A DNA stretch of 64,000 bases, taken from NCBI GenBank assembly GCA_964585155.1, contig CAZPCQ010000001.1, positions 8,070 through 72,069 of the forward strand. Direction: 5' to 3'. Within the stretch, counting starts at the first letter, position 1, and the number at the start of each line of letters is the position of its first letter. The position numbers and the translations under genes are program-made. The notes under the pieces were generated by a model that was not told the origin of the DNA, did no database searches, and worked only from the letters and a program-made list of their open reading frames with translations. This DNA comes from an uncultured Candidatus Saccharibacteria bacterium. GTDB taxonomy: Bacteria; Patescibacteriota; Saccharimonadia; Saccharimonadales; Saccharimonadaceae. Below, in pieces: positions 8,542 to 60,230 of the stretch.

Positions 8542-8757
8542 TTTTCCACATTACGTGGATAACTTTTCCGCTTTTTCACCATACCAAACCCGAACACAAA
8601 AAGTCCACTTTATTACTAACATAATTAGTTTCACCTCAGTTTTCCACTTATCCACTTTTATCTGTGGAAAACTCCCACTCCACCCACCGCTCCGACGGGG
8701 ATTTTTCTTATAAAAATCGGTGGTAAGTTTTCCACTTTTCCACCTACTTTTCCACAT
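8542..8757. promoter_or_regulatory. DnaA-box cluster downstream of recF
   Basis: TTTTCCACA (8542, 8749), CGTGGATAA (8554), TTATCCACT (8648), TGTGGAAAA (8663), TTTTCCACY (8640, 8729, 8737). Confidence 0.7.
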
Positions 8758-8776
8758 TATTCAAAAACTAATGACG

Positions 8777-9781
8777 TTATTCTACACTTAGTCCACCACT
8801 CCCCACACTTGTCAGCACAATCTGATTATCCCTAAAATTCTTCACTAGACACTTCTGCCTCATCTCATCCAGTTCCGAGAATACATCATCCAGTAATACT
8901 AGCGGTCTCTTCTCTAGTACCTCCAGTATCAACTCCGCCTCAATAAATTTTAACGCCAGAATGCTCGACCTCACCTCACCTCTACTCGCCGAGCCATCCG
9001 CTTTTCGTCCATTAAACACGAACTCATAGTTATCATGATGTACTCCAAAACTCGTATGTCCGAGCAGGGAATCACGCCCAAAATCCCGCTCCAGTCTCAA
9101 CAAGAAATCACTCTCTTCTTCCACTTCACTCAAATATTCCAATTTCACCTCATCCTCATTTTCCGCAATCGACCGATACACCTCCGTAAATCTCCGGTTT
9201 ATCTTCTCCATTATTTTTCTTCGCTCTTGATTTAGCGCCACTCCATGTTTTACCAGTAAAATATTCCAAGAAAACAAATCCCCTGGCATTATCATTTCAT
9301 CTTTCAATAATTCATTCCGCTGCTTCAGCGCCTTATTGTATCGCGTCAAATTCACCGCGTAGTTTTCCGATAACTGCCCAAACATCCGATCAAAATACCC
9401 CCGTTTACTCGTCGGACTCGACCCCACTAAGTGCAAATCATCCGGCTCAAACAATACAATCGGATATTGCAACTTTTTCGGCAGCCTCCCCGCTTTTTTA
9501 TCTTCCACCAAAAATTCTTTCTTCACCCCGTCATACACCGCCACTACTTTTCTGCCATCCTTATATTCCAACTCCACCCGATAAAATTCCGCCCCCCTTC
9601 GCAAAATCTCTTTATCCGCCGCCCGGAAACTTTTCCCCCGCAATACCTCATAGATCGCCTCTAGGATCGAAGTTTTCCCACATCCATTTTGCCCCATAAT
9701 AGTCGTCGTCTGCCCGGCACAATCCAGCACAAAACTCTCATGACTCCGAAAATTCACCAACTTCACTCGTCTAATTACCAT
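8777..9781 (-). CDS. recF: DNA replication/repair protein RecF
   Basis: GQNGCGKTSILEA, SASRGEVR, LLDDVFSELD; lies downstream of dnaN. Confidence 0.93.
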   Translation of the reverse strand: MVIRRVKLVNFRSHESFVLDCAGQTTTIMGQNGCGKTSILEAIYEVLRGKSFRAADKEILRRGAEFYRVELEYKDGRKVVAVYDGVKKEFLVEDKKAGRLPKKLQYPIVLFEPDDLHLVGSSPTSKRGYFDRMFGQLSENYAVNLTRYNKALKQRNELLKDEMIMPGDLFSWNILLVKHGVALNQERRKIMEKINRRFTEVYRSIAENEDEVKLEYLSEVEEESDFLLRLERDFGRDSLLGHTSFGVHHDNYEFVFNGRKADGSASRGEVRSSILALKFIEAELILEVLEKRPLVLLDDVFSELDEMRQKCLVKNFRDNQIVLTSVGSGGLSVE

Positions 9782-9914
9782 CTTTTACCTCTAATCTTTC
9801 CCTGAAGAGAATGAATTTTGAGTTAATACGCGGAAAAAGTGAAGCACGCAAGCGAACCGTATTTGACATACGGAGAGCGCGTACTGGAACTTTTGACAAA
9901 GTAGTAACCAAAAT

Positions 9915-11021
9915 TCAACTCTTCAACGGCATTACTATATGAATGTAATTATTACACCCCACCCCCTGCACCACCACCGGATCCAACCTATTCGCAAACC
10001 GGAAAATCACTTCATCCTCTACCGTCGCATTCAGTGCATCTAGCAAAAACCTCGAGTTTAGTGTTACTTTTCCATCCACTTCTACTTTCGTCGCAATCTC
10101 TGAGCTATTCTCTCCTAATTCATTCGCCACTGCCGCAATCGCAAAAGTCCCATTTTCTACACTCGTGCTGCACACTACCGACCCACCTACTTCTCGCGCA
10201 AACAATGCCGCTAATTTTGTCACTCTGATCAACTCGCTTTTACCTAATTCCACTTTCACTTCCGATTCTTTCGGGATTAACTGTCGATAATCAGGGAACG
10301 AACCATCCACCAATTTTGAAGTTACCTCAATTCCATCTAAGCGGAACTTCACTTGCGTCTCGTCAAACAATATTTCCACTTCTTCCATTTCATCACTGAG
10401 CGACCGCATCACTTCCTGTAGCGACCCCGCCGGCACAATTGCCGACACTTCCGCCTCTACTTTATCCACCAGTTTACGCTCTGCCAGCCTATATCCATCC
10501 GTCGCCGCCACATACAGTCCACCTTCAAAAGTATTAAAATACACCCCAGTTAGCGCCGGTCGCGTCATATCACTACTCGCCGCCATCATCACTTGTCCCA
10601 GCCCCGCCTTAAATTCTTCCGCCGGCACCCGGAAACTCACCATTTTCTCTTCCTCTAATTCTGGCAATTCCGGAAAATCATCCGCCAACGCTCCATTAAT
10701 CATCGACCGACAAGCCCCCGCTTTCACTTCCACTTTCGTCCCATCCGCCGTAATTTCCACCATCTCACCCCTCGGTAGATTACTCACAAACTCCGCTATC
10801 AGTTTCGCCGGTACTGTCACTACTCCATTTTGACTATCCGTTACCGGTAACACACTCATTACTGCCATATCCAAATTTGTAGTGGTTAGACTTACTTTCT
10901 TATCTTCCACTCTTACTAATACATTGCTTAAAATCGGCAAAGTTGCCCGAGATCCCGCTGCTACTCGGCTCACATTACTTAAAGCCTTCGCCAACTTTTC
11001 CTGCAAAATCTTAATTTCCAT
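9915..11021 (-). CDS. dnaN: DNA polymerase III beta clamp
   Basis: LPILSNVL, RPALTG, AATDGYRLAE, GSFPDYRQLIP, IVMPL. Confidence 0.97.
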   Translation of the reverse strand: MEIKILQEKLAKALSNVSRVAAGSRATLPILSNVLVRVEDKKVSLTTTNLDMAVMSVLPVTDSQNGVVTVPAKLIAEFVSNLPRGEMVEITADGTKVEVKAGACRSMINGALADDFPELPELEEEKMVSFRVPAEEFKAGLGQVMMAASSDMTRPALTGVYFNTFEGGLYVAATDGYRLAERKLVDKVEAEVSAIVPAGSLQEVMRSLSDEMEEVEILFDETQVKFRLDGIEVTSKLVDGSFPDYRQLIPKESEVKVELGKSELIRVTKLAALFAREVGGSVVCSTSVENGTFAIAAVANELGENSSEIATKVEVDGKVTLNSRFLLDALNATVEDEVIFRFANRLDPVVVQGVGCNNYIHIVMPLKS

Positions 11022-11040
11022 ACTTCCTTTATCAGCCCTT

Positions 11041-11288
11041 CATTATAATTTATTTAATAATAGTAATAGTAAGTACTGTGGAAATTGTGGAAAACGCTCC
11101 CCCATATCTGTTTTCCTATGTGCAAATCGACCTGCAAAACTTTCCCACAGCCACGTGCAAAACTCCGACTTTTACCCACCAAAACCCCACTTTCCGACTT
11201 TTTCACAGCCCCCTTCCAACTTTCCCACAGTCTTTCCCACAAACTTTCCCACAAACTTATCCACATTTTTTCCACAGCCACCGCATTT
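11041..11288. promoter_or_regulatory. oriC: oriC: AT-rich DUE, DnaA-trios and DnaA boxes between dnaA and dnaN
   Basis: TAA TAA TAG TAA TAG TAA (11055-11072), then GTAC and TGTGGAAAT/TGTGGAAAA (11077, 11086). This matches the B. subtilis basal unwinding layout. Further boxes at 11221, 11233, 11245, 11257 (TTATCCACA) and 11268. Confidence 0.9.
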
Positions 11289-12662
11289 TTACCCATAAAT
11301 CTGCTCCCTCAGCTCGTTTACCTGATCCCTCAGACTGAAGTTCAATTTCAGGTCCTTTTCAATTTTCTTTACTCCGTGCATCACCGTTGTATGATCCTTC
11401 ACCCCTACCTCTAGCGCAATTTTCGGCGTACTCATCCCTAAATCTTTCGACAAAATATACATCGCCACCTGCCGTGCATTCTTAATATGCGCCACCCGAC
11501 TCTTTCCGCACATTTCTTTCGGTGTTAATTGATAAAACTTCGCCACTTTTTCTACCACCATCTTCGGTGACACCGTCTTCGCTCGTGTTGCATTAACCGA
11601 GTTCGCATACCCTTCCGTAATTACCTGATAAGGCGTCATATTCTTAAAATCTGCCACCGCCAAAATATGTGTCAACTCTCCTTCCAGTGCCCGAATATTT
11701 GTCTTCACATTATCCGCAATATATTCAATCGCTTCATCTTCAATTTCCGCTCCCCGGAACTCCGCCATCGATTTTAAAATCGCGCACCGGTCCTCAAACT
11801 GCGGCATCTGCAAATCATACTCACCCGCCTGTGATAGCCGCGACGCCAATCTCACATCTACCGACTTAATCTCATTCGGCAACCGATCCGATGTTACAAT
11901 AATCTGTTTGTCGTGTTGTGTTAGCTCGTTAAAAATATCAAAAAACTCCGCCTGTGACGCATCCTTATTCATGATCATCTGGAAATCATCAACAATCAAC
12001 ACATCTAATTTTTGGAATCTCTGCCGGAATTCCTCAATTTTTTTTGTCTGCAGCGCCTTAATGAAATCTGAATAAAAACTCGATATCGGCGTATAAAATA
12101 CTTTTAGTGACGGATCTCGCTTCAAGATCTCATTTCCGATCGCCTGCACTAGATGCGTCTTACCTAGTCCCGGTCCGCCATACAGGAAAAACGGGTTGTA
12201 TCTCGTCCCCGGCGCGTCAATTACATTTTGCGCCACGTTCACCGCTAGATCGTTATTTGTACCAATCACAAAATTATCTAGCGTATATCTTGGATTTAGC
12301 CCCGTTTGTACCGACCCGTTCACTAGTGGGGAAGAACGGTAATTTGAAGTCGCCACATTTGCTAATGACTGAATCGCATCCACTGGCGGTCTCGATATAT
12401 GATTTTTCGGTTTCGGCTTCTCTCGCGTCAAAATATCATATTTTATCTCTGTGACCGCTATGTCATTATGCGTCAGCGCCATCTTGATTACATCCGAGTA
12501 TTTCGACTGCAACTGTTTCCGCTTAAACACATTCGGCACCCCAATCACAATCAAATCATCTTCTATCGAAAGTAACTCTGCTCCAGTAAACCAAGTCGCA
12601 AACTGTTCCTTCGGAATCGTCTGTTCAATCTCAGCCATCACCTTCTTCCACACATCAAGCAT
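11289..12662 (-). CDS. dnaA: Chromosomal replication initiator DnaA
   Basis: YNPFFLYGGPGLGKTHL, DDFQ, RLASR, ARQVAMY, KDHTTVMHG. Confidence 0.98.
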   Translation of the reverse strand: MLDVWKKVMAEIEQTIPKEQFATWFTGAELLSIEDDLIVIGVPNVFKRKQLQSKYSDVIKMALTHNDIAVTEIKYDILTREKPKPKNHISRPPVDAIQSLANVATSNYRSSPLVNGSVQTGLNPRYTLDNFVIGTNNDLAVNVAQNVIDAPGTRYNPFFLYGGPGLGKTHLVQAIGNEILKRDPSLKVFYTPISSFYSDFIKALQTKKIEEFRQRFQKLDVLIVDDFQMIMNKDASQAEFFDIFNELTQHDKQIIVTSDRLPNEIKSVDVRLASRLSQAGEYDLQMPQFEDRCAILKSMAEFRGAEIEDEAIEYIADNVKTNIRALEGELTHILAVADFKNMTPYQVITEGYANSVNATRAKTVSPKMVVEKVAKFYQLTPKEMCGKSRVAHIKNARQVAMYILSKDLGMSTPKIALEVGVKDHTTVMHGVKKIEKDLKLNFSLRDQVNELREQIYG

Positions 12663-12679
12663 AGACCCCCGTCACCTCC

Positions 12680-12870
12680 TTCCTTAATAACTTCATTATA
12701 CCAAACCTTCTCCCATTTTTCCACAGTTTTTTCTCCAAAAACCCACATTTTCCAACTATGTTATAATATGTCCACTCCGTAACAGAGATAACTTTTCCAC
12801 AGCCAGCTCCAAATCTCTAGTTTAATATGTGGAAAACTTCTTGAAAAAAGTGGAAAACTGGTGTATACTA
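12680..12870. promoter_or_regulatory. Divergent dnaA/rpmH promoters with DnaA boxes
   Basis: Boxes at 12717, 12793, 12828, 12849. rpmH promoter TTGAAA(12841)-17-TATACT(12864). Minus-strand TGGTATAAT near 12686. Confidence 0.7.
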
Positions 12871-12925
12871 GAACAAGTAATTGCTATACATTAAAGCACA
12901 AGAGTAATAAATTGGAGAAAATACT

Positions 12926-13063
12926 ATGCCAAAGAGGACTTATCAGCCACACAAACGCCAACGCAAAGTCGAGCACGGCTTTATGAAGCGCAATAGCACC
13001 AAAAATGGTCAAAAAGTTCTGAAGCGCCGCCGTATTAAAGGTCGCGCCCGCTTAACCGCCTAA
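12926..13063 (+). CDS. rpmH: 50S ribosomal protein L34 (not in the ORF track)
   Basis: Translated by hand: [52 protein letters not shown]. Confidence 0.97.
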
Positions 13064-13069
13064 CTTACT

Positions 13070-13101
13070 AAAATAACCCTCAATGACGGGGGTTATTTTT
13101 T
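13070..13101 (+). terminator. Terminator after rpmH
   Basis: AAAATAACCCT-CAATGAC-GGGGGTTATTTTTT. Confidence 0.75.
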
Positions 13102-13145
13102 GAAGAAAAGAATACGAAGGGGTGGGAGTGCAAGCCCTTCAAAAA
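13097..13145 (+). repeat. Structured repeat family A, 3' remnant
   Basis: GAAGGGGTGGGAGTGCAAGCC is also present in the 14.1 and 62.2 kb copies. Confidence 0.7.
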
Positions 13146-13185
13146 CATATTTGCATTTTCATTTCAAATCTAGTATAATAAAAGT

Positions 13186-13545
13186 ATGTTATCCCAGCGT
13201 TATCGTTTTCATTCTCGGGGCGGCGTTAATTACACTTATCAAAAGGGTAAAACTATTCGCACGCCTCTGATTTCGCTAGTCTATAATCATAACTCTCGCG
13301 GCCGCCAACGCTTCGCTGTCGTCGTTTCCAAAAAAGTTCTTAAATCCGCCGTCGGTCGCAATACTATCCGCCGCCGCGTTTATGAGGCCATCCGCCTCGA
13401 ACTTCCGGGCTACCGCGAGCCGATGGATAATATTTTTGTCGTCTATAATCAATCCGTCCTCACGATGCCTTTTCTCGAACTTCGTCGCCTCATCAGGGGA
13501 CTAATGGACCGCAGCCTCACCGCTTATCATCCTCATCATAAATAA
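13186..13545 (+). CDS. rnpA: RNase P protein component
   Basis: RFAVVVSKKV.KSAVGRNTIRRR; synteny. Confidence 0.93.
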   Translation: MLSQRYRFHSRGGVNYTYQKGKTIRTPLISLVYNHNSRGRQRFAVVVSKKVLKSAVGRNTIRRRVYEAIRLELPGYREPMDNIFVVYNQSVLTMPFLELRRLIRGLMDRSLTAYHPHHK

Positions 13546-13571
13546 AAGCAGCCCCACCGAGGGCTACTTTT
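13544..13571 (+). terminator. Terminator after rnpA
   Basis: AAAAGCAGCCC-CACCGA-GGGCTACTTTT. Confidence 0.7.
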
Positions 13572-14117
13572 ATAGGCGAAGGATCTTGACATACGTTTAA
13601 TAGTGCGTTAAAATGGTCTCATACAGCTATTGAAAATTACTTTCGTTTACCGAAGGTAATTTTTATAGTCACCTTAAGGCGACTAATCTTGAATGATATA
13701 GTCATATAAGTCTCATTCCACATTGTTAAATTGTACTAATTCATCGACCAACCAATAAAGGTTGAATAGCATCGGCCAATTAGTCCTTCCTGTCAGTCTC
13801 CGCCATATCTCCATATTAGCATAAACTTTACTTAATATAAACACTAAATCATTATAAACATAAATATAAACACAAAAATAACTATATCACAACCCAAGAC
13901 TATACTTCCATAAACCAAATTTTATTATATAATAAGCAACACTAATATATCACCAAATGAATATTTAAGATATAATATTGATAATATGACACCAGATAAA
14001 AAATAAAGCCTCCTGAAGCAAAGGCCTACCGCCTCACGCCTCCCTCTAGCGAATAGTCATTATTTCATCTAAATCCAACTTTTTGTTTCTTAGTCTAGTT
14101 AAACTACGTCGTATTAT

Positions 14118-14212
14118 TCCGAGGCGACGAACCGCCCCTGAAGCGGGGCCTAAGACTTGGCCGAGCGGCCCGGAGCGGCCCCGCGGAAGGGGTGGGAGTG
14201 CAAGCCATCGGA
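14118..14212 (+). repeat. Structured repeat family A, short copy inside a larger nested inverted repeat
   Basis: GGCGACGAACCGCCCCT..CTAAGACTTGGCCGAGCGG..GCGGCCCCGCGGAAGGGGTGGGAGTGCAAGCC, flanked by a perfect 19-bp IR (14068-14086/14248-14266). Confidence 0.85.
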
Positions 14213-14406
14213 TGATTAGAAGAAAGATTTGTCTAGCATATTATCTTACAAAAAGTTGGATTTAGATTATGTACATTATTCGCTTAGAAAAAATTAAAAT
14301 ACCTTTTCCATTTTTTATTTTCAAAATATGTTAAAATTCTTTAAAATAAATATGAATTTCCACATCCCTTCTAGTCATCTCTATAAAAGTATGCTATAAT
14401 GGAACT

Positions 14407-15522
14407 ATGTTTTCATTTATTGATATGATTATCGTCCGCCCCATCACGAACATCCTCTTTTTGATCTACGGTTTCGTGGGTGATTTCGGCCTGGCGATTA
14501 TCCTTTTTACAGTTTTAGTTAAAATTTGTCTCTGGCCTATCGCCAAGAAACAGCTTCATCAGACTCGCCTGATGCGCAAGATTCAGCCTGAGCTCGCTGA
14601 GATCAAGAAGAATTGCAATGGTAACCGCCAGCTCGAATCTCTTCAGATGATGGATCTCTACAAGCGCAACAATATCAAACCTTTCCGCTCTATGCTTACG
14701 CTTATTATCCAGCTGCCGATTTTTATCGCCCTCTATACTGCGGTTCGCGTGATGGTTTTACCAGTTCCCGATGACAATCTTGAGCTTCGCGCCTACGCCC
14801 CCGTCCGCCAGATCGAGCGCGTCGAAGAAGTCGTCCAGCTTCAGCAGCCTTATCTCGAGTATCAGCGCGAAGTTGCCGCCATCCGCAGTGATAGTAATTT
14901 GAGTGACGAAGAAAAAACCGCCAAAATCGACGAACTTCCCAAAGTCACCTATGATTTTCACCCTAAACTTTTCGGTCTTGTCGATCTCGATGTTAAGGCT
15001 GGTTTTGGCTCCACTAGTGCTCTCGTGATTATGGTTTTTGCTCTCGCTTCCGCCTTCACTCAGTTTTGGATTTCTCGCCAACAACTTCCATCTAAAAAAG
15101 GTGACCGTAAAACCTTCCGCCAAATCATGGCCGAAGCCGCCGACGGTAAAGAGCCTGACCAAGCCGATATGAATCAAGTTATGTCTAGTCAGATGGCCTA
15201 TACGATGCCGATTATGATGCTCCTCATTATGATTAATCTCCCTGGCGCTCTTGTCTTTTACTATCTTATCACGAATCTTATGACCGGTCTCCAGCAAAAG
15301 TATATCCTCGGCAAAAAAGAAGAACAAATGGAAATCTCTGCCGACAAAAAACTCATCCGCGACCTCAAGAAAATGGAAGAAGGCCAGATTGTCGAAGATA
15401 CTACATCTAATCGGTGGGTCAAGAGTAAGAATGCGACCAAAAGTGAAGACAAAGCCGGTGTGAAAGTTACGCACATTTCCGCCAAAAGTAGTCGCAGGGG
15501 TCATAAGAAGAAAAGGAGTTAA
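14407..15522 (+). CDS. yidC: Membrane protein insertase YidC
   Basis: DFGLAIILFTVLVK..IQPEL..LIIQLPIFIALY; GALVFYY; synteny. Confidence 0.95.
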   Translation: MFSFIDMIIVRPITNILFLIYGFVGDFGLAIILFTVLVKICLWPIAKKQLHQTRLMRKIQPELAEIKKNCNGNRQLESLQMMDLYKRNNIKPFRSMLTLIIQLPIFIALYTAVRVMVLPVPDDNLELRAYAPVRQIERVEEVVQLQQPYLEYQREVAAIRSDSNLSDEEKTAKIDELPKVTYDFHPKLFGLVDLDVKAGFGSTSALVIMVFALASAFTQFWISRQQLPSKKGDRKTFRQIMAEAADGKEPDQADMNQVMSSQMAYTMPIMMLLIMINLPGALVFYYLITNLMTGLQQKYILGKKEEQMEISADKKLIRDLKKMEEGQIVEDTTSNRWVKSKNATKSEDKAGVKVTHISAKSSRRGHKKKRS

Positions 15523-15525
15523 TCT

Positions 15526-15987
15526 ATGAACAAAGATGAATCAATTCGGTTTGCCACCAAATACCTCGAGGACTTACTTTCGTTTTTCGGTATCAACGTC
15601 GCTGTCGATTCTACCATTGATGACGAAGTTATCCAGCTTTCCATTCCCAGCACCTCGATGAACTCCCTCCTTATCGGCCGCGAAGCGCAGAACCTCCGTG
15701 CCCTCCAGCACATCGTCTCCGCTGCCCTCACTTGTCGCGACGCCGAAGTTACCCGCGTCAATGTCGATGTCGCCGATTACAAACGTCAACGTGCCGACCG
15801 CATCGCCGAGCAAGCTGAGAGATGGATCCGCGAAGTCCGCGTCACTGGTAATCCTAAGCGTCTCAATCTCAATGCCGCCGACCGCCGTGTCGTCCACAAA
15901 GTCGCCCAAGATTACTCCGACATCCGCACTCATTCCGAAGGCGAAGGCCGCGAACGTCAGCTCATTATGGAAAAACTCCCCAACTAA
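15526..15987 (+). CDS. jag: Jag/KhpB RNA-binding protein (KH+R3H only)
   Basis: LLIGREAQNLRALQ, RRVVH..HSEGEGRER; follows yidC. Confidence 0.88.
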   Translation: MNKDESIRFATKYLEDLLSFFGINVAVDSTIDDEVIQLSIPSTSMNSLLIGREAQNLRALQHIVSAALTCRDAEVTRVNVDVADYKRQRADRIAEQAERWIREVRVTGNPKRLNLNAADRRVVHKVAQDYSDIRTHSEGEGRERQLIMEKLPN

Positions 15988-16456: not shown

Positions 16457-18229
16457 TCACCGCGCCACGCATCTCACTGAAAGACCGTCATAACGGTTAC
16501 CATAACCACCGTTCTGTGCTGTGGGGTTTACTGAACTGCTGAAGGAGAGAACATATGATATAATATCGCTAACAGCACTATCGGATGACCAGTAATCGCC
16601 GCGAGAGCCAGCTTCTGTCATAGTCCCATGATACATATACCCACTGTATACGAAGAAAAGCGGCGCCAATCTGATATCGTATTGACCACTAGATAAGGTG
16701 CTCTGAAGGTTATATTGCGAGAGAAGGAAACCGAAAGATTTGCTGGATGTCTTATTATTGCCTATTGGTAGACGCCATCCCCTTGGACATATACTTCGTG
16801 AAGCAGATGCTTTGTCTGAAATATTCTGCGCCTCATTGGCTGTTGTTGCTCCCCAAGAGTAGTAATTACCTGATAAATAATGCGCGTCATACTCTTTATT
16901 AGTAACTACCTGGTTCCCCATATCTTTATAGAAATTAGGATTATCTGATGGAGTTAACGATTGTACGTTTTTCCATACATCTGCACATCCAGATAACGCA
17001 CTACCAGCGGTCAAATCACACTTTTTTATGGAAGTAGGATTTGAAAGTGCATATACGCCAGGGTTATAGTATTTCACCAAATTGGCGGTGTTTTGACTAC
17101 CGGACCAGAACCCACTCGCCCCCGTCGTCGACTTCCAGCTCCCCACTGTTTCCGGAATATCCGAATCCGCACTCGTCAGCGTCCTCCCGTTCAGATCAAG
17201 CGCCAAATTCTGCGTCATCCAACAGTTGCCATCCGCTAACTTCGCAATCCAGTAATACTTGCTATCTCTCGCATCCTTCACTCTTGCTGTATCACCTATC
17301 AGCGCCGCATCGCACACTCGCCACGTCATATCTTGCATTGTCGGCAGGGAAGATAGATTGACTACTTCTTTCGCATCTGTCGCTACACTCAGTGTGATAT
17401 TTGATTTATAGTGATCCGCTTTCGCCCCTTCCATATTTGCCGCGAACGCCAAAGTATATGGTTGTGTCACGTTGGTCAGTTGACTTCCATCACTTTTCTT
17501 CACTGTATCCGCCGCTATCCCTACTGTTGATTGGATTGCTTGATAAGTCAAACTCGCCGGGTCCGCATTATGACTTTTTGCCACCGCATAACCCCACTGC
17601 ATCGCGCCAATTCCATTCGCTGCTGTCGCTGTTGCGATACTACTAATTACATCCGGATTATTTGGTGTCGCACCGGTCAGCAAAGTACTGTCCGCCTGCA
17701 CGAACACTTGATATTGATCTACGTTGTTTGCTCCCACTGTGAAGTTTATGCTAATATATTGCGCTCCACCACTACTAGATACAGGCTGCGTGATAGTATT
17801 GTTATCCATTGCCGTGTCAATACTTAGTGCTACTCCTTTTTCCGGCACCGTTAGCGCTTGCGTATCGATCAAATTTTCTGTGTCACCCTCAGTTGCTGAT
17901 ACTTCACTTATTTGAGTAGGGAATATCATCATTCCGATTAACCCAACCAGAGCCAATGACGCCATCGCCGGCAAGCCTAGAGGAATTATCTTGCCCACAA
18001 TACGACTTTTCTTATGATTTAGACAAAATTCTTGGCGAGGGTCGCTCCCGAACTTTTCCACCACTCGTCCAGCCGCTTGTGTTTTCCTAAAGAAACTCTT
18101 ATTCAACTTATTTTTGTAGAAACAAGTACGTTTATCACTACGAAGAAGATGTGATTTTTGCTTAAGTTTTTCTGCACAAGAAACATTACTTTCTCGCACA
18201 GAATAAGTTTTCTTTATTCTATGCCTCAT
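16457..18229 (-). CDS. FISUMP (Fib_succ_major) domain surface protein 1
   Basis: LADGNCWMTQNL, GNYYSWGA, ICPRGWRLP, GDYWSS, GLSVRCVAR; TM helix; RBS AAGGAGG before MRHRIKK. Confidence 0.8.
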   Translation of the reverse strand: MRHRIKKTYSVRESNVSCAEKLKQKSHLLRSDKRTCFYKNKLNKSFFRKTQAAGRVVEKFGSDPRQEFCLNHKKSRIVGKIIPLGLPAMASLALVGLIGMMIFPTQISEVSATEGDTENLIDTQALTVPEKGVALSIDTAMDNNTITQPVSSSGGAQYISINFTVGANNVDQYQVFVQADSTLLTGATPNNPDVISSIATATAANGIGAMQWGYAVAKSHNADPASLTYQAIQSTVGIAADTVKKSDGSQLTNVTQPYTLAFAANMEGAKADHYKSNITLSVATDAKEVVNLSSLPTMQDMTWRVCDAALIGDTARVKDARDSKYYWIAKLADGNCWMTQNLALDLNGRTLTSADSDIPETVGSWKSTTGASGFWSGSQNTANLVKYYNPGVYALSNPTSIKKCDLTAGSALSGCADVWKNVQSLTPSDNPNFYKDMGNQVVTNKEYDAHYLSGNYYSWGATTANEAQNISDKASASRSICPRGWRLPIGNNKTSSKSFGFLLSQYNLQSTLSSGQYDIRLAPLFFVYSGYMYHGTMTEAGSRGDYWSSDSAVSDIISYVLSFSSSVNPTAQNGGYGNRYDGLSVRCVAR

Positions 18230-18566
18230 TGGCCCTCCTTGTTGGTTATTATTTTGGGCCAACACAAAATACTTGAATATAAATATAATTGGCCCTTCTT
18301 CGCTCGAGCGCCAACTTTCAGTCTACAACTAAAAACGACACCCTAGGTCCGAGTATCTCACTACGCGGAGGTGTCTACGTACAACTAATCTTTCGAATAC
18401 TTGTGAGCAAACGACTTTTTACCTAAGGTGCCGTTCAAATCTCATAAGTATTACCAAACTAGTTTCTTCAAACTTTAACAAATTGTACATAGATTATTAT
18501 AAAAATAATCCGCATAGTGAGATAACCCCATTATACCACATTTCTCACCAAATCAACCCAAAAAAC

Positions 18567-18622
18567 TTATCCACCACCCGCACACCACTTGTGCAAAACT
18601 CTGTGGAAAACTCTGTGCAAAA
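18567..18622. promoter_or_regulatory. DnaA-box-like cluster upstream of the FISUMP-1 promoter
   Basis: TTATCCACC 18567; TGTGCAAAA 18590; TGTGGAAAA 18602; TGTGCAAAA 18614. Confidence 0.55.
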
Positions 18623-18683
18623 CTTTCCGCGCACCTAATAATATAATATAACCCCGCGGAAAACCATTCCCCTACTCCCCCCT

Positions 18684-42915: not shown

Positions 42916-44343
42916 ATGAAACGGGACACGGGTTTGATTTTCCACGCTTTCCTGATTTTGGGTGACGCGTGCGCGATTTTACTGTCCTTTTTGGCGGCTT
43001 ATTTTATGCGCACTCATTTGGACCAACGCCCATTTTATTTTGAGGCTGACCCTTGGCGCTTCGTTTTGTCAATGCTGGTTATGGTCCCCGTTTATCTTCT
43101 AATTATGGCTGCCCTCGGGCTGTACAAGAAATCCGTTTTTCTCAGCAATAGTCGCTGGCACGAAATCGGCCGCATTTTCCTCGCCTCTGTCATTGGGATG
43201 ATGGCGATTATCACCTGTGACTTCTTCTTTTCCACCGACCTTTTCCCGGTCAAAGTTATGGCATTATATGCTGTTTTCACCTGTTTTGTCTTGCTTAGTC
43301 TTTTCCGCGGTGGCGTCCGCCTCGTCCGCAGTTTTGCTCTCAAGCACAGCCACAAAGCCGCTCTTCGTGCCATCATTGTCGGCAATAGTCAAAATACCGA
43401 GTACCTCGCTGACTACATCTCCGCTTATCCCGAGTCTGGCTTCCGTCTTGCCGGTATAGTCGCCTCGCAGAAATATATCCCCAAAGATCTCCGCCGCAAA
43501 CAATATTCCTCTCTCAAAGAGGCCTTGCGCAAGGCCCGCCCCGACGTTATTTTCCAAACCGATGAGCGCCGTACTGATTACGTCTATCGTCAGGCTGTCA
43601 ATCGTCATCTCTATTATTATTTCGTGCCTTCTAGTGCTGCTCTTACCGCCCAGACCGGAGAAATGGAGCTCGTCGGCAGTACCCCGGCTATCTTAGTCAA
43701 AGTCACCCCTCTTGCCGGCGGTGCCCGCTTTGCCAAGCGCTGTTTCGATCTGTTTTTCGGGTCGATTATTTTACTGCTTGCCCTCATTCCGATGGTTCTC
43801 ATCTGGCTAATCGAGAAGATCTCCGATCCACACGCCCCTGCCGTCTATAGTGATATCCGCCTCTCCCGCTATAACAAGAAGTTCAAGATTTACAAATTCC
43901 GCTCCATCAAGTCAGAATACAACGGCCTCACCCCAGAGGAGGCCTTCGAGAAAATGGGCAAACCTCAGCTGATCAAAAAATACCGTGCCGGCGGCGATAT
44001 GATCCCTAACGACCCTCGTATCACCAAACTCGGCCACTTCCTCCGCGCCACTTCGCTGGACGAATTGCCGCAATTGTTTAACGTTGTCAAAGGCGACATC
44101 TCTCTCGTCGGTCCCCGTGCCCTCGTCCCCGGAGAACTCCGCCATTACGGCGATCGCTCCCTCCTCCTCTCGGTCAAATCTGGGCTTACTGGCCTCGCCC
44201 AAGTCTCCGGCCGCCGCGACATCGGTTTCGACGAACGTCGCGCCCTCGACCTCTATTACATCCAAAACTGGTCTATCTGGCTTGATCTCCGCATCCTCCT
44301 CCGCACGGTTGGCGCTGTTCTACTCTGTAAAGGGGCGAAATGA
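42916..44343 (+). CDS. Polyprenyl-phosphate sugar-1-phosphate transferase (WcaJ/WbaP family)
   Basis: KRCFDL, FKIYKFRS, DPRITKLGHFLRATSLDELPQLFNV, SLVGPR, DLYYIQNWS. Confidence 0.93.
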   Translation: MKRDTGLIFHAFLILGDACAILLSFLAAYFMRTHLDQRPFYFEADPWRFVLSMLVMVPVYLLIMAALGLYKKSVFLSNSRWHEIGRIFLASVIGMMAIITCDFFFSTDLFPVKVMALYAVFTCFVLLSLFRGGVRLVRSFALKHSHKAALRAIIVGNSQNTEYLADYISAYPESGFRLAGIVASQKYIPKDLRRKQYSSLKEALRKARPDVIFQTDERRTDYVYRQAVNRHLYYYFVPSSAALTAQTGEMELVGSTPAILVKVTPLAGGARFAKRCFDLFFGSIILLLALIPMVLIWLIEKISDPHAPAVYSDIRLSRYNKKFKIYKFRSIKSEYNGLTPEEAFEKMGKPQLIKKYRAGGDMIPNDPRITKLGHFLRATSLDELPQLFNVVKGDISLVGPRALVPGELRHYGDRSLLLSVKSGLTGLAQVSGRRDIGFDERRALDLYYIQNWSIWLDLRILLRTVGAVLLCKGAK

Positions 44344-46337: not shown

Positions 46338-48328
46338 AGATCCTCCGCAACCTTCTCTGGCCCCTAGTCTACGCCCTCCCTGCCGTCCTCTTTTTCTCCT
46401 ATCACCCCGTCATCGGCCTCGGCGCCAACTCCTCCATGAACTTCGAACTCTCCCTTCCGCTCCTCTGGCTGATTATTTTTGATTTCTTTAGTTTCATTAC
46501 AATGGTCGTCCTCTTCGTTCAAAAACGTCAATCAGCGCAGCACAAATCCACTTCAAAATCAATAGGCCAAGCATCCGCCCGCTCTAAGCATCACTCTGGC
46601 CCCTGGGGACCTCACCTCCCTGGCCTCACCGACCGCCGCTTCTTCCTCTTAGCCATTTTCCCGCTCTACCTCACCATCTCGGTTTTCTGGTCGGCCAATC
46701 CCCTCCGCGGTCTCTTCACCGCCGGCGTGATGTGGGCTGTCTTTTTCGCCGTTTTCTCTCTGTTATTTATTGTCCCCCAGACTGGCGCTCCTCGCCGCCT
46801 CCGCACTCACGTCCTCTTGACAATGTTCATCTCCGCTGTTATCGTTTGCAAATTTTGCTATGCTCAGAGTATTATGGATACTTGCTTTGGCCTTTCCCGC
46901 GATGCTACTCTCCTCTGCCCCGGCTGCACTTACCGCTCCTTCGGCTTTCCTCATCCTTCCGGCTTCGCCATCGAGCCCCAGTTTATGGGCAATCTCCTTC
47001 TCGCCCCCACCCTCACCGCGCTCTATCTCGTCGCCTTCCGCTCGCGCAAATTCGCCAATACCGTTATCCATGAAGCCTCTCATCTTGAGAATGAGGCCGA
47101 ACATAATCTCCTTCACGACCAAGTTCACCTCCCCGAGGTCAACTGGAAACTCTGGCAACGCATCGGTATGATCATCCTCGCCGGCTTCCTTTCGATGACG
47201 CTGTTTTTCACCTTCTCCCGCGGCGCCATTTACGCTTACGTCGTCGCCATCTTGAGTATGCTAATTTTTGCCCTCAAGCGTCACCAATTCCGCTGGAGCC
47301 TCATCGCTATCCCCGTTGTCAGTTTCATCCTCTCGCTCAGCCTCCAGGGAACATTCGCCGCCGTCGGCCCCACCGCTGAGACTTTCTTCTCCGGCGTCGC
47401 CAAATCCGTCCACCAGCTCTCCCTCGGCCTCATCGACTTCCGTTCGCTCGCTTATGAGCCCTCCGAGGACGCCATCGAGCAATATAGTTATGAGCATGCC
47501 GTCCCCACCTCTGTCGCTCGGGAGATTCTCAAACGTCAATATCAATCCCAGCTCTCTTCTCAATCTGTGAAAAACTCCTCATCAAACGGTGGAAAACCTG
47601 TGGATAAAACCAGCCTAGATGTGGAAAAGAATGACCAAAATGTAGATAAAATCGATCAAGATGTAGAAAAAACCGCCGAAATCATCGACCACGAAATCAC
47701 CAAAGAGGAAACCAAGTTAGAAAACGAGGTTGATACTACGCTTGAAGATATCATTTTCGAGGGCTACGTTCCCGAATCCACCAATATCCGCCTGCACCTC
47801 AATCGCGCCGCCATCGACACCTGGCTTTCCGCCCCCGGCCATCCCGAGTCCGGCCTCAGTATTGGTCTCAAATGTTCCCACTCCGACCCCTGCCTTGCCT
47901 CTGGTAAACTCACTCCCACCAGCATCCTCTTCGGCGTTGGCCTTGGTGGTGCCGGCACCGCCCTCTATCTCAATTCTCCCGTTACTGACATTAACTCGCC
48001 CAAAGAAATCGTCCAAAACGAACCCTTCTCCCTCCTCTTAGAAACCGGACTCGTCGGCATCGCTCTGGCTATTTTCGGACTCCTCATCATCTTCGCGCCC
48101 CAGATTTTCACGCGCAAATTCCTCGACGGCAAATCCGCTCCAGCTACCAAATCCACCCCCAGCCCCTTCTGGCGCCATCCCGCTCTCCCGCTTCTCCTCT
48201 CCCTCATCGTCGCCTACGTCATCACCCTCAATTTCTTCTCCGGCCTCCCCAACGCCCTCCAGATTTACCTCATGCCGCCCCTCCTCTACCTCATCTTTTC
48301 TGACCACTACCGCGTCACCACTGTTTAG
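46334..48328 (+). CDS. O-antigen ligase/polymerase-like (Wzy_C) membrane protein
   Basis: Many TMs; GFAIEPQ, TFSRGA, FGVGLGG, NEPFSLLLETGLVG. Confidence 0.75.
   Translation: MKILRNLLWPLVYALPAVLFFSYHPVIGLGANSSMNFELSLPLLWLIIFDFFSFITMVVLFVQKRQSAQHKSTSKSIGQASARSKHHSGPWGPHLPGLTDRRFFLLAIFPLYLTISVFWSANPLRGLFTAGVMWAVFFAVFSLLFIVPQTGAPRRLRTHVLLTMFISAVIVCKFCYAQSIMDTCFGLSRDATLLCPGCTYRSFGFPHPSGFAIEPQFMGNLLLAPTLTALYLVAFRSRKFANTVIHEASHLENEAEHNLLHDQVHLPEVNWKLWQRIGMIILAGFLSMTLFFTFSRGAIYAYVVAILSMLIFALKRHQFRWSLIAIPVVSFILSLSLQGTFAAVGPTAETFFSGVAKSVHQLSLGLIDFRSLAYEPSEDAIEQYSYEHAVPTSVAREILKRQYQSQLSSQSVKNSSSNGGKPVDKTSLDVEKNDQNVDKIDQDVEKTAEIIDHEITKEETKLENEVDTTLEDIIFEGYVPESTNIRLHLNRAAIDTWLSAPGHPESGLSIGLKCSHSDPCLASGKLTPTSILFGVGLGGAGTALYLNSPVTDINSPKEIVQNEPFSLLLETGLVGIALAIFGLLIIFAPQIFTRKFLDGKSAPATKSTPSPFWRHPALPLLLSLIVAYVITLNFFSGLPNALQIYLMPPLLYLIFSDHYRVTTV
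47566..47670 (+). repeat. Small phased DnaA-box array inside the ligase-like gene
   Basis: Boxes at 47566, 47588, 47599 (perfect TGTGGATAA), 47620, 47641, 47662. Confidence 0.75.
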
Positions 48329-48468
48329 CTCTTGTTTTCTAATCCGGTCCATCATTACAAAATCTCCTCACCTCAAAAATCGCCTTTCCACCCCTGCATA
48401 AGTCCCTAGCCTCAAGAATACCGCCCCGCCCCTGTAGAGTCCATTTCCAATAGCGTCAGCCCTCGCGC

Positions 48469-48499
48469 AAAAAGCCCCGGATTTTCATCCGAGGCTTTT
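48469..48499. terminator. Bidirectional terminator
   Basis: AAAAAGCCCCGG-ATTTTCAT-CCGAGGCTTTT. Confidence 0.7.
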
Positions 48500-48513
48500 G
48501 GGGTAATAGATAG

Positions 48514-55042: not shown

Positions 55043-56572
55043 CTACTCCACCTCGCTCGAGCTCTCTTCCTCACTATCGACGTCGACAACCTTATTCAAA
55101 TCTTCGTCAATATCTTCCTCGGGCTTCTTATAATCATCTTTAACTACTTTCGGCTCGTCTTTCACTACCGAGTCAGCCTCGTCTTCAGTCTCTACCGTGG
55201 CGTTATCTTTGCTTACTTCGGCTTCTTCTTTTTGCTCGGCTTCGTCGGCCTCTTCGTTGAGCTCTAGCATATCTACCACTGCATCTTCCGCTACATCCGC
55301 CTCTTTCTCTAATTCTGCACTCTCCTCAGCGTCACCTTTTTCCGCCTCGCCATCCTTAGCCTTTTTCGTTTTCTTGCCAGATTTCTTTGCGTCTTCAGGC
55401 TTCTCTGTACCGTCACTATCAGTCGCCTTCTCTGCACTCTCATTCGTATCGGCATTCTCATCTTCGTCCGACTCACTCAGCGCATTCAATAATGCATCTT
55501 CCGCATTCTTACGTTTCTTCTTTTCCGGCGCCTTTGCCAGCTCGATGTCTAGATCGTATCCGGTCAATTTCGACGCCAAGCGCACATTTTGCCCCTGTTT
55601 ACCAATCGCGATCGACTGCTGGTCTTCATTTACATAGACTTTCGCCTTCTTCCCATCGATTTCCACCTTCACCACCTCTGCCGGGCTCAGCGCCTCCCGG
55701 ATATACTCCGACGGATTATCGCTCCAGGTAATAATATCAATTTTCTCCCGGTCGCCGATCTCGTTCATAATCGCCTGTACGCGCATCCCGCGTCCCCCGA
55801 CGAACGTTCCTACTGGATCCACTCCCGCACTATTCGCCGTCACCGCAATCTTTGTCCGCCGGCCCGCCTCACGCGCGATTCCTTTAATTGACACTGCGCC
55901 ACTATCCAGCTCTGGCACCTCTTGCCGGAACAGATTCTCAATAAACGCCGTATTTCCCCGCGAGAGAATTAGTTGCGCCTTTGAATCGTCGTGCTCCACT
56001 CCCTTGATGTAAACTTTCAAACGCTCACCTACAGTATAATATTCACCATCAATCTGCTCGCTCCGCGGCATAATCCCGCTTGCGCGCCCCATATCGATAT
56101 GCACCACCCGCGGATCCACTCTCGAGACCACTCCCACCGCGATCGTCCCGATTTTATCCTCAAACTCCGCCAACACCGCATCGCGCTCTGCCTCGCGTAG
56201 CCGTTGCACCACCACCTGCTTCGCCGTCATCGCCGCCACCCGGCCAAATTCTTCCACGTCATACGCTTCCTCCACGATGTCACCAATCTCCGCATCGGCC
56301 TTCAGTTTCTTCGCCTCTTCCTGCGGAATCTCTGTCGCCGGGTTATAGGCCAACCCATCTTCGATCACCTCGCGGCTCACATAAGCCTTCGCCGTGCCAT
56401 TATTCGTATCCAAAAGCGCCCGCACATTCATCTCACGCTCACCGTGATCTCGCCGCCACGCTGCCGCGATCGCCATCTGCACCGCATCCAGCACCGCCTC
56501 TTTCGAGAGGCCTTTTTCCTCCGCGATTACATCCACCATCGCCGTCATTTGTTTCAGATCTAGATTTTCCAT
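55043..56572 (-). CDS. nusA: Transcription factor NusA with a long acidic C-terminal tail
   Basis: FGRVAAMTAKQV, AREAGRRTKIAV, DPVGTFVG, AIGKQGQNVRLASKLTG. Confidence 0.96.
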   Translation of the reverse strand: MENLDLKQMTAMVDVIAEEKGLSKEAVLDAVQMAIAAAWRRDHGEREMNVRALLDTNNGTAKAYVSREVIEDGLAYNPATEIPQEEAKKLKADAEIGDIVEEAYDVEEFGRVAAMTAKQVVVQRLREAERDAVLAEFEDKIGTIAVGVVSRVDPRVVHIDMGRASGIMPRSEQIDGEYYTVGERLKVYIKGVEHDDSKAQLILSRGNTAFIENLFRQEVPELDSGAVSIKGIAREAGRRTKIAVTANSAGVDPVGTFVGGRGMRVQAIMNEIGDREKIDIITWSDNPSEYIREALSPAEVVKVEIDGKKAKVYVNEDQQSIAIGKQGQNVRLASKLTGYDLDIELAKAPEKKKRKNAEDALLNALSESDEDENADTNESAEKATDSDGTEKPEDAKKSGKKTKKAKDGEAEKGDAEESAELEKEADVAEDAVVDMLELNEEADEAEQKEEAEVSKDNATVETEDEADSVVKDEPKVVKDDYKKPEEDIDEDLNKVVDVDSEEESSSEVE

Positions 56573-58461: not shown

Positions 58462-58520
58462 ATCCCCAGTTTAGCATACCTCAGTGGCTAAGTAAAATCC
58501 TAGTGTCAATAAAAATAGCT

Positions 58521-59297
58521 CTATCTCCCCACTTTCACCGTCTTACTATAAATTTCCTTCATCCGCTCATCCGGAAACTTCTGGTCCAGCACCTTCTCTA
58601 GCCGTGTTTTCGCCGGGTCACCTTCGTCCCGCTCATTCTGCCGCCACACTGCCGCTGCCGACAGGGTAATATCAAACAATAGAAACAATGCAATCGCCAG
58701 GCACAGCCGATTCGCCTGCCTTGCCTCAATCTGCCGATAAATTTTCTCAATAAACGGGCACACCCCCTTCGCCGTCACGAACACCAGTATTCCCCACACC
58801 AGCGCATACGGCACCGTCGTCCGCCCGTCAATATTCAGCCACAGTTGTGAATAATCCCACGACCGCGTCTGGAAAATTATCTCCTGCAGCCAACTGAGCA
58901 AGAACTCCAGTGCTCCGCCAAAAAACGCTCCTCCCACCAAGCATACCCACCCCCGGAACTTCGGTAGGTAAAATATCAAATAAATCAGCACCGCCCCAAT
59001 CCCATACACCGGACTAAACGGCCCATACACCAGCCCTCGCCGCGACTCCCAGTCAAACACCCCCGTCGTCCACAGCGTCGATACCAGATGCAGTACCTCT
59101 TCCCAATACGTCCCAAATACGCATCCTACTGTAAAAATCAGCACTACCATATTAAAAATCCCCCGTTTTGTCAACTTCAGCTGCCCGTCATCCTCCGCAA
59201 ACAGCCATTCTCGCCAATTCCACCCCTGTTTCCGTGGCGTCTTCATCACTTTAGCCTTTACCGATTTCTTTTTCGCGGAATTCGTTGTCTGCTTCAT
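58521..59297 (-). CDS. Putative ABC transporter permease (DUF1113/CmpB-like)
   Basis: GLVYGPFSPVYGIGA, LEF..SWLQE..F..RSWDYS..LNIDGR; start at 59297, 6 nt after TATAAT. Confidence 0.75.
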   Translation of the reverse strand: MKQTTNSAKKKSVKAKVMKTPRKQGWNWREWLFAEDDGQLKLTKRGIFNMVVLIFTVGCVFGTYWEEVLHLVSTLWTTGVFDWESRRGLVYGPFSPVYGIGAVLIYLIFYLPKFRGWVCLVGGAFFGGALEFLLSWLQEIIFQTRSWDYSQLWLNIDGRTTVPYALVWGILVFVTAKGVCPFIEKIYRQIEARQANRLCLAIALFLLFDITLSAAAVWRQNERDEGDPAKTRLEKVLDQKFPDERMKEIYSKTVKVGR

Positions 59298-59495
59298 AAT
59301 CTCATTATACCGAACTTTCCCCAAAAATCCAACCGCATATCTCCAGCCTCGCCACTCTTCATTACAATCTTGCCAAAAGTCAAAACCCCCTTAAACTTCA
59401 TCACGATCCCGCAAAATGTCCAGTCAACCTCTAACGCATCCAACCCATAAAAAGCACCCCGTCCGTAGACAGGGTGCATAGGAGCGTGTGGCGAG

Positions 59496-59927
59496 TTACA
59501 AGGCGGCAACCTGAGCGTCAGCGCTGTCCTCCGGCCGCCTCAGAGCAATCACGTTGCCAAAGGATCTCTCGTCGCCGGCTTCCGCGGCCTCCCTGCTCGC
59601 CTCGAGCTCGGCCTGCCGCCGCTCCCGCTCCTCCGGGCTCGTTTCCAGCCCATCAAAGCAGAACCCAGCGCAGACCCGCCGCTTCTCCAGGAATACCAGC
59701 GCCTCGCGGACTTTGTTGACAGTAAAAGGGAACTCGTGCAGCTGCGTGTTCTCGGTTTCCTCCATCGGCTGGCAGAAAATCTCCACCTTGCCGTCCGCCA
59801 GATTCACCAGTGTCCGCCGCGGCGGTACCCGGAAGAACTCCAGCAGCATCTTGTACGCATCGGGATTCTTGTCAGCGAAAGTCTCCCTGCTCATCACGGT
59901 AGAAGTCTGTTTGTCCATAGGGGTCAC
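59496..59927 (-). CDS. Hypothetical protein
   Basis: ORF with an upstream minus-strand TGTGCTATAAT promoter near 59975. Confidence 0.55.
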   Translation of the reverse strand: MTPMDKQTSTVMSRETFADKNPDAYKMLLEFFRVPPRRTLVNLADGKVEIFCQPMEETENTQLHEFPFTVNKVREALVFLEKRRVCAGFCFDGLETSPEERERRQAELEASREAAEAGDERSFGNVIALRRPEDSADAQVAAL

Positions 59928-60230
59928 TCTTCTTTCCTATAAAATAACGAACAAGCCATAATTGACCCACCTCTATTATAGCACACAATTTTCCCAAAAT
60001 CAACTATCATTGTGGAAAACTTCCCATTTTGTCCATTATTTTAATAAAAATCCTAAATTACCGCAACAGGGAACTACCCCTATTACCACAACTCTCATCA
60101 CCACTCAAAACCTATAGATTAACCATAAAAACTATTGACAAAAACAAAAAAGTGTGCTACAATGGATGTATAAGGTGGCTAAATAATAGCTCGTACCTAA
60201 CACAATTTGTATGAAAAGGAGAATACCGTT

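Follow-up and report, generated by a model that had tools for sequence, protein, structure and literature searches.

This report concerns a 64,000-nt stretch of DNA from an uncultured Candidatus Saccharibacteria bacterium (GenBank assembly GCA_964585155.1, contig CAZPCQ010000001.1, positions 8,070 to 72,069), hereafter called the window; positions given without the name of another locus are those of the window. In this and related gut Saccharibacteria, long, helically phased rows of DnaA boxes lie inside the translated linker regions of three cell-surface sugar genes, which encode a polysaccharide-type ABC transporter ATPase, a GT4-family glycosyltransferase and a Wzy_C-like membrane protein. 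We give about an even chance to the reading that these arrays are accessory DnaA-box clusters (DBCs) of the Bacillus subtilis DBC or Escherichia coli datA type, which would act as binding platforms for the cell's own DnaA, titrate it and restrain re-initiation. Accessory DnaA-box clusters as such are known; what is new is that long, phased, co-oriented arrays are written into open reading frames. The initial annotation of the window had seen in the clusters a candidate undescribed way for a reduced-genome epibiont to titrate DnaA, or to couple envelope transcription to the cell cycle or host attachment. The embedding in translated sequence is real, and the literature searched yielded no description of it and no paper that mentions both the DnaA box and Saccharibacteria.

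Abundance and clustering of DnaA boxes

The exact E. coli consensus TTATCCACA is found seven times in the window (0.43 expected), and 53 sites match it with one mismatch (13.8 expected). TTWTCCACA is present in 25 copies where 1.3 are expected, a number reached in none of 100 shuffles, and 24 of the 25 copies fall in seven clusters. The commonest 9-mer of the window is TTTTCCACA, and together with TTATCCACA it is over-represented 19-fold. The logo of the arrays, TT(T/A)TCCACA(G/A), matches the 9-mer DnaA-box consensus far above chance. Cluster contents were counted with the strict pattern NT[ACT]TCCACN (Table 1). The clusters listed in the initial annotation are present at every position it gave; its single box at 60011 also exists, but is indistinguishable from chance. 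A DNA uptake sequence is ruled out, as only one of the 25 exact sites is dispersed, and CRISPR and a protein-only repeat are ruled out on distribution, spacing and frame usage.

Position and geometry of the coding arrays

The GT4 array encodes residues 314–425 of the glycosyltransferase, which form the linker between two Rossmann-like domains. Neighbouring boxes in it are spaced only 11, 21 or 22 bp apart and span 30 helical turns in 324 bp. The ABC array has spacings of 11, 21, 22 and 42 bp and encodes an N-terminal extension of the ATPase, at residues ~24–121. The third array encodes a soluble loop (residues ~411–446) of the Wzy_C-like membrane protein. Within each coding array the boxes are co-oriented.

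When the window is pooled with 21 relatives (231 boxes), the most frequent neighbour spacings are 21 bp (70 times), 11 bp (42 times) and 22 bp (30 times), followed by 32/33, 42–44 and 53–55 bp. Pairwise distances up to 200 bp are periodic at 10.7–10.8 bp, with a resultant of 0.81 over 842 pairs. The coding arrays place 7–20 sites in 100–330 bp outside the unwinding site, as DBC- and datA-like clusters do with several boxes in a few hundred bp. An intergenic location, which is another feature of such clusters, is displayed by the clusters at 8.5, 12.7 and 18.6 kb and not by the coding arrays.

Translation and predicted disorder of the inserts

The ATG of the ABC ATPase directly follows the stop codon of the permease gene and is preceded by GGAGG, a junction that is kept in nine genomes, and in all orthologues the array is spanned by an open reading frame. 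The conserved ribosome-binding site and start together with the open frame show that the ABC array is translated.

Orthologues of all three genes at greater distance have neither insert nor boxes. Array-free GT4 orthologues are ~370–390 aa long versus 665 aa for the window protein, whose residues 295–428 they lack. Array-free ABC ATPases have ~254–281 aa versus 381 aa, and array-free Wzy-like proteins are without residues 380–471. An AlphaFold model of the GT4 protein (40 homologues) gives a pLDDT of 85–98 in both Rossmann-like domains and below 50, with no secondary structure, at residues 309–423; the insert is therefore predicted to be disordered.

A separate observation is that many proteins of the window carry long low-complexity extensions which are box-free and absent from distant orthologues (34752–35000, 44340–44500, 46089–46322 and 55046–55558). 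Examples are the N-terminus of Glf, both ends of the GT4 protein and the C-terminus of NusA.

Constraint on the nucleotide sequence

Across the arrays, boxes occupy all three reading frames and are read as FST, FPQ or FH. The frames of the GT4 boxes in the window are, in order, 2,0,0,2,2,1,2,2,1,0,2,0,0,2,1,2. Because the box frames are mixed, homologous inserts are built from the words FST/LST, FPQ/YPQ/SPQ and FH/IH, and such box-encoded words are found in 49 of 120 GT4 homologues.

The peptides of 33 arrays were re-encoded 500 times, with codon usage taken from the remainder of the respective host gene. Such synonymous resampling yields 29 boxes versus the 235 observed, and in 32 of the 33 arrays no resample reaches the observed count. 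In the window the GT4 array has 16 boxes versus 1.3 expected and the ABC array 7 versus 0.2. Alignment of the GT4 array with that of relative L204 shows 77% identity at box positions and 36% in the spacers, a contrast that is inflated by the tendency of such an alignment to match repeat to repeat.

The other low-complexity segments of window proteins contain no boxes, apart from two which hold one each. The box-free segments include the LytR N-terminus in addition to the Glf, NusA and GT4 ends named above. A protein search with the ABC-array peptide as query found no homologues. The constraint on the arrays is at the level of DNA and not of protein.

Conservation, turnover and birth of arrays

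A search with the Bac_transf priming transferase encoded upstream of GT4 returned 80 loci at 57–81% identity, all of them from Candidatus Saccharibacteria, Nanosyncoccus, Nanosynbacter or TM7. The closest relative available is L204 (Bac_transf 87% and ABC permease 93% identical), and no GT4 homologue exceeds 64% identity to the window protein.

In about 20 species-level Saccharibacteria genomes the three sites again bear arrays, of 5–19 boxes and with unchanged orientation (array-bearing relatives are L001–L005, L007–L013, L015, L017, L021, L204 and L205), with 5–10 boxes at the Wzy site of the relatives. Conserved enzymes of these species are only 70–87% identical. Relatives L005, L008 and L011 have the locus inverted relative to strand skew, yet in these too the arrays run in the usual direction with respect to the gene. 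L021 has an additional, fourth array (4188–4667) with 15 co-oriented boxes, which runs from the Glf–GT2 intergenic spacer into the N-terminal extension of GT2. In L017 the GT4 and Wzy-like proteins are encoded by one open reading frame of 1097 aa (11410–14700), which represents either a fusion or a lost stop codon.

Lineages without long arrays show two to five perfect 12-nt TGTGGAAAACTC repeats, encoding VENS, at the Wzy loop site. Perfect or near-perfect copies are found in L075 (13732–13788) and in L044, L048, L064, L069 and L071. These repeats illustrate how in-frame tandem duplication can start an array, and they are candidate "young" arrays.

Repeat units within the window arrays are imperfect, with 69–95% matches, and no difference within the three arrays is seen among contigs from four metagenomic samples (one study, consensus contigs). 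On these two grounds a phase-variable contingency repeat is ruled out. Long-range RNA pairing of the GT4 array (UUAUCCACA)n with the Wzy array (UGUGGAUAA)n in one transcript is likewise rejected because several genomes keep one array without the other.

A metagenome scan for three phased boxes found 120 loci in unrelated taxa with G+C contents of 26–67%; about 15 adjoin dnaA and none is close to the window. Phased, co-oriented box triplets are thus widespread in this sample, and some are inside open reading frames (contigs L126 100–251, L135 1955–1999, L099, L186, L199, L131 6362–6475 and L092 3523–3555). The sequences concerned encode the helical domain of MnmE, an ABC-transporter linker that joins the membrane domain to the ATPase domain, and (TVEK)4 linkers of SLFN/HATPase_c_4/HTH regulators, and there are two Pfam-less open reading frames that resemble phage or plasmid replication proteins. 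Occurrence in such unrelated proteins suggests that dual coding may be more general.

The dnaA neighbourhood

The dnaA gene of the window encodes all four DnaA domains. Alignment of domain IV with the DNA-bound structures 1J1V, 3PVP and 8BTG shows that it retains the RQ..P..DHTTV.H signature of box-reading DnaAs, whose residues we take to be base-contacting.

The spacer between dnaA and dnaN contains a 12-bp-period box array, AACTTTCCCACA in four copies (11218–11276), and a box pair (11077–11094) followed by the four nucleotides GTAC and the DnaA-trio-like sequence TAATAGTAATAGTAAG (11056–11072), which has five TAA/TAG trios. A 30-mer in the spacer is 93% A+T. Alignment shows that the layout is kept in L201–L203, whose DnaA proteins are 80–90% identical. 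The basal unwinding system (BUS) of bacterial origins consists of a box or box pair, a spacer of up to 16 bp, at least three NAN trios and flanking AT-rich DNA (PMC8287927). The dnaA–dnaN spacer agrees with this, as it has a box pair and a short spacer, five or more NAN trios of the TAA/TAG type, and AT-rich DNA, but it lacks an accompanying GC-skew switch. The resemblance concerns this spacer only and does not extend to the coding arrays. The oriC that the initial annotation assumed is not marked by a skew switch.

Two intergenic clusters flank this region. One is in the dnaA promoter region and the other is downstream of the recF-like gene, a position at which relatives have 6–9 boxes. As both are kept in place in relatives, the 8.5- and 12.7-kb clusters are fixed parts of the origin region and not the dispersed sites for which they had been taken. 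The same DnaA-box motif builds the coding arrays, the clusters flanking dnaA and the unwinding module. In the cluster downstream of recF, three copies of the C-rich 15-mer CCAAACCCGAACACA (one of them 80% identical) are interleaved with DnaA boxes at 8461–8598, in a non-coding region of 618 bp.

The small cluster at 18.6 kb consists of TTATCCACC and a 12-bp repeat (TGTGCAAAACTC / TGTGGAAAACTC / TGTGCAAAACTT), with two TGTGCAAAA variants in the repeat. The surface-protein gene that flanks it is absent from L202 and L203.

Accessory DnaA-box clusters as the favored reading

Selection on DNA may keep the arrays inside coding stretches whose products, linkers or extensions, are disordered and dispensable. 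An array aligns as many as ~20 boxes, of consensus or near-consensus sequence, in the same direction and on the same face of the helix, repeating every ~10.7–10.8 bp; such a geometry would allow neighbouring DnaA molecules to bind cooperatively. The arrays would then sequester DnaA, and might contribute to its inactivation, in the part of the chromosome near dnaA and oriC, and re-initiation would be restrained. Their location in coding sequence is probably due to the scarcity of spare intergenic DNA in a small genome. Fast-evolving surface-glycan proteins may tolerate low-complexity inserts, in which arrays could be born when a unit of 12, 21 or 33 nt that contains a box is duplicated in tandem and in frame.

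The initial annotation had proposed titration of DnaA. This appears a reasonable function given that the clusters outside the unwinding site are conserved, constrained at the DNA level and comparable to the oriC-proximal DBCs of B. subtilis (PMC3245932). The coding arrays of the window are 21–35 kb from the dnaA–dnaN spacer. In the window and in L001/L203, dnaA and the glycan locus are 17–35 kb apart on one contig, and in L009 and L013 they also share a contig.

Several points weigh against this reading. Its premise of DnaA occupancy is drawn from sequence, and the bias in the box and spacer comparison has been noted above. Individual arrays are dispensable, the GT4 array being missing in L003 and L006 and the Wzy array in L008, L012, L013, L015 and L204. 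A pure sink should move freely between genes, yet the arrays stay in the same three; this fixity could reflect a gene-specific role, or an in-frame array may not easily relocate. L011 keeps its arrays, and dnaA is not in the 21 kb examined of its 100-kb contig. Finally, a GC-skew switch was sought in the window and around dnaA in three relatives and none was found. Skew at four-fold sites has one sign throughout the window (−0.2 to −0.9, + strand), in genes of both orientations, and it is single-signed on both sides of dnaA in L201, L202 and L203 as well. Thus the dnaA region is not at a skew switch despite its origin-like module, and the position of the replication origin is uncertain. Either the switch is outside the window or replication from the dnaA site is not symmetric and bidirectional.

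Alternative explanations

The strongest alternative, which we nevertheless consider doubtful, is gene-specific cis-regulation. DnaA oligomers would serve as a roadblock or operator in the glycan operon and tune export, glycosyltransfer and polymerisation to the level of DnaA-ATP, i.e. to the cell cycle or growth state. The arrays do stay with the same genes, and their orientation is set by the gene even in the three inverted loci. Of the four sites with arrays, two are at the 5′ end of a gene (the beginning of the ABC ATPase gene, and the L021 spacer leading into GT2), and distant lineages again show small box repeats at the Wzy site. At some DBCs, DnaA is known to act as a transcription factor (PMC3245932). 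However, the orientations are mixed, with the GT4 boxes on the coding strand and the ABC and Wzy boxes on the template strand, and arrays are lost singly while the host gene is retained. One strong antisense promoter-like site adjoins the ABC array (33670–33642). It is not kept in orthologues, which rules out an antisense promoter as a conserved feature, and the roadblock or antisense coupling suggested in the initial annotation is not supported.

The glycan association itself is derived from a single locus and a biased sample. The initial annotation described a network linking the initiator to surface-glycan genes, with arrays in genes for glycan export, synthesis and ligation. Pfam confirms the ABC ATPase and the GT4 enzyme. 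"Ligation" is the weakest of the host-gene labels because the Wzy_C match is below threshold (22.7 bits versus a gathering cut-off of 31.7). The three arrays lie in one contiguous locus at ~16–51 kb and are not three independent hits, and the network description is overstated. This locus makes up more than half of the window, the comparative loci were fetched via a glycan gene, and no conserved promoter or antisense promoter is found at the arrays; a link between arrays and glycan function is thus unproven, although the arrays do remain with their genes when the locus is rearranged. It is possible that the association of three arrays with glycan genes is due to chance, at roughly 0.55^3. A bolder proposal, which appears unlikely, is that DnaA filaments on the arrays would be gates, set by cell cycle or growth state, that couple glycan export, glycosyltransfer and polymerisation to the DnaA-ATP level in an epibiont whose envelope must be coordinated with replication and host attachment, and that linker-coding arrays perhaps provide control of a kind so far overlooked in many bacteria and phages.

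Non-adaptive expansion is about as improbable. Box units would multiply in linkers that tolerate inserts, through slippage during replication or through unequal recombination, and would be maintained as neutral or mildly selfish minisatellites, to which DnaA binding would be incidental. Perfect 12-nt tandem repeats (L075, L044, L048, L064 and L071), short near-perfect repeats of 11 and 21 nt inside arrays, a copy number of 5–19 and patchy presence are all in keeping with such a process. Neutral repeats would decay evenly, however, and here boxes are kept while spacers are randomised. The excess over synonymous expectation is 8-fold across 33 arrays, in species as diverged as those described above. 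Helical phasing survives the frame-shifting spacings of 11 and 22 nt, and the four samples show no length polymorphism.

Less probable again is some other DNA-level purpose, such as recognition by another protein, static curvature due to A-tracts in helical phase (GGAAAA every 10.7 bp), or the anchoring or organisation of the origin-proximal chromosome. Each box has a T4/A4 tract, and these tracts, being phased with the helix, would bend DNA; the B. subtilis DBCs interact genetically with Soj/Spo0J (PMC3245932). Curvature does not need TCCACA, though, and the whole 9-mer is conserved. The excess of the exact E. coli consensus and the use of the same motif in the dnaA-flanking clusters and the unwinding module also argue against this explanation.

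Selection on the peptide, with V-E/D-N/K heptads or S/T/P/Q-rich linkers as its object and the boxes as a by-product of codon usage, is largely refuted and very improbable: most ABC and Wzy boxes are in one frame (xVEN / xVDK), and avoidance of the tryptophan-encoding frame suggests some filtering at the peptide level, but the GT4 boxes use all three frames within one array, no peptide period survives spacings of 11 and 22 nt, and the resampling, the box-free low-complexity segments and the peptide search have given the results above. It is equally hard to credit the arrays as secondary or dormant replication origins: their many co-oriented, closely spaced boxes recall the DnaA-oligomerisation regions of origins, but they are translated, show no skew change, have no stretch above 80% A+T (30-mers) within 150 bp versus 93% in the dnaA–dnaN spacer, and display no TAA/TAG-type trio run beside a box pair when the array sequences are read, no formal trio scan having been made.

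Comparison with known systems

For the favored reading of accessory DnaA-box clusters, the closest functional analogue is the set of B. subtilis DBCs, which also consist of several box clusters outside the unwinding site. Six DBCs are located outside oriC, mostly near it, where they bind DnaA stably and restrain initiation, and some regulate neighbouring genes (Okumura et al. 2012, PMC3245932). The Bacillus DBCs are intergenic, and potential sites are beside different genes in different Bacillus species (PMC3245932). The window arrays differ in that they are in translated open reading frames, are co-oriented and phased with up to ~20 sites per 330 bp, and are found in the same three genes across species.

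The E. coli datA locus has five boxes (PMC3245932). It is a high-affinity box cluster on the chromosome, close to oriC, and lowers the initiation potential, which the proposed role of the arrays would resemble. It differs from the arrays in coding context and size. An IHF site is essential to datA, which acts through DnaA-ATP hydrolysis; no IHF-type site was seen in the arrays, although no search aimed at IHF was made.

In the low-affinity DnaA site arrays of E. coli oriC, sites are 2 bp apart. The window arrays resemble such oligomerisation arrays in their co-oriented 9-mers and 11-bp centre-to-centre period, which would favor cooperative filling with DnaA. The oriC arrays, however, belong to an origin and end at an unwinding element, while the window arrays have no AT-rich element and are 21–35 kb from the candidate unwinding site. 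The origin of phage lambda is inside gene O, where the initiator-binding repeats are in the part that encodes a flexible interdomain linker. There too a single DNA segment serves both as protein code and as binding-site code. In lambda it is the initiator gene that hosts the repeats, and the site is the origin; here the hosts are genes for glycan enzymes and transporters, and the arrays are not origins.

Replication control is essentially unstudied in Saccharibacteria and the wider Patescibacteria, and to our knowledge several regulators of model bacteria are unreported in them. The arrays give a concrete handle on how Saccharibacteria time replication. A set of about 70 conserved DnaA boxes within 40 kb, some 40 of them in protein-coding sequence, would be a sizeable initiator sink in a very small cell. 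The arrays are also a natural case of dual coding, in which a helically phased protein-binding array and an open reading frame share one stretch of DNA. In compact genomes, disordered linkers can thus accommodate regulatory DNA. A warning for annotation is that constraint on DNA, rather than on protein, can shape low-complexity inserts.

Gene map and other features of the window

The single large envelope/glycan locus, inside which all three coding arrays are found, encodes (Pfam) LytR_cpsA_psr, Fib_succ_major surface proteins, a ricin lectin, several GT2 proteins, GT8, GtrA, the ABC-2 permease and ATPase, Glf, an epimerase, Bac_transf, GT4 and the Wzy_C-like protein. It is followed by tRNA-Met, nusA and then dnaK, which runs off the end of the window. 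Coordinates are collected in Table 1.

Table 1. DnaA-box clusters, host genes and gene blocks of the 64-kb window
Feature	Position	Strand	Description
GT4 array	45281–45613	+	20 box-like sites (16 strict), all TTWTCCACA on coding strand
ABC-ATPase array	33687–33979	−	7 strict boxes (33687–33890), ~15 relaxed sites; TGTGGAWAA on coding strand
Wzy array	47566–47670	−	3 strict and 3 weaker boxes; spacing 22, 11, 21, 21, 21 bp
Host gene 1, polysaccharide-type ABC transporter ATPase	33616–34761	+	Pfam ABC_tran 5.7e-23
ABC-2 permease gene, translationally coupled upstream of ATPase	32794–33615		Pfam ABC2_membrane 6.2e-17
Host gene 2, GT4-family glycosyltransferase	44340–46337	+	Pfam Glycos_transf_1 6.4e-26; downstream of Bac_transf priming transferase gene 42916–44343
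Host gene 3, polytopic membrane protein	46334–48328	+	Weak O-antigen ligase/polymerase match, Wzy_C E 9.3e-5
Non-coding cluster downstream of recF-like gene	8378–8757 (boxes 8542–8756)	both orientations	8–9 boxes
Candidate oriC unwinding module, dnaA–dnaN spacer	11022–11288
dnaA	11289–12662	−	Pfam: all four domains
Cluster in dnaA promoter region, rpmH–dnaA spacer	12717–12857		4 boxes, ++−−; same arrangement and place in L201–L203
Small intergenic cluster	18567–18624		2 strict boxes; upstream of surface-protein gene 16457–18265 (−)
Single TTTTCCACA box in promoter region	60011–60019	−	~1.3 such sites expected by chance
Type-IV-secretion-like block	562–8158	+	Pfam
recF-like gene, dnaN, dnaA	8777–12662	−	Pfam
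rpmH, rnpA, yidC, jag-like gene	12927–15987	+	Pfam
Single large envelope/glycan locus	~16–51 kb		Pfam

Some minor observations concern other parts of the window. The 861 bp between rnpA and yidC (13546–14406) have no long open reading frame; L203 has a gene of 568 aa in the corresponding place. Two minus-strand open reading frames at 62483–63756 are antisense to dnaK (62480–64000, + strand), and one of them matches Pfam NAD-GH at 1e-60. Both are most likely artefacts and not genes.

The upstream regions at 60018–60174 and 61056–61210 share a duplicated module, whose segments of 49 and 67 nt show 79–84% identity. The module contains TTTTGTCCATTATTTTAATAAAAAT and a strong TTGACA-17-TGnTACAAT promoter and precedes the genes at 60207 and 61362, just before dnaK. 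It may be a shared control region, possibly of the heat-shock type.

Among the sequencing runs listed, four DNA runs contain the window, whereas the RNA runs share only the host-species label with it. For window positions 33000–48500, the four samples that contain the window (X1–X4) also have many contigs that are 90–99% similar to parts of the glycan locus and have joints that skip segments. These suggest that several related strains or variants of the locus coexist.

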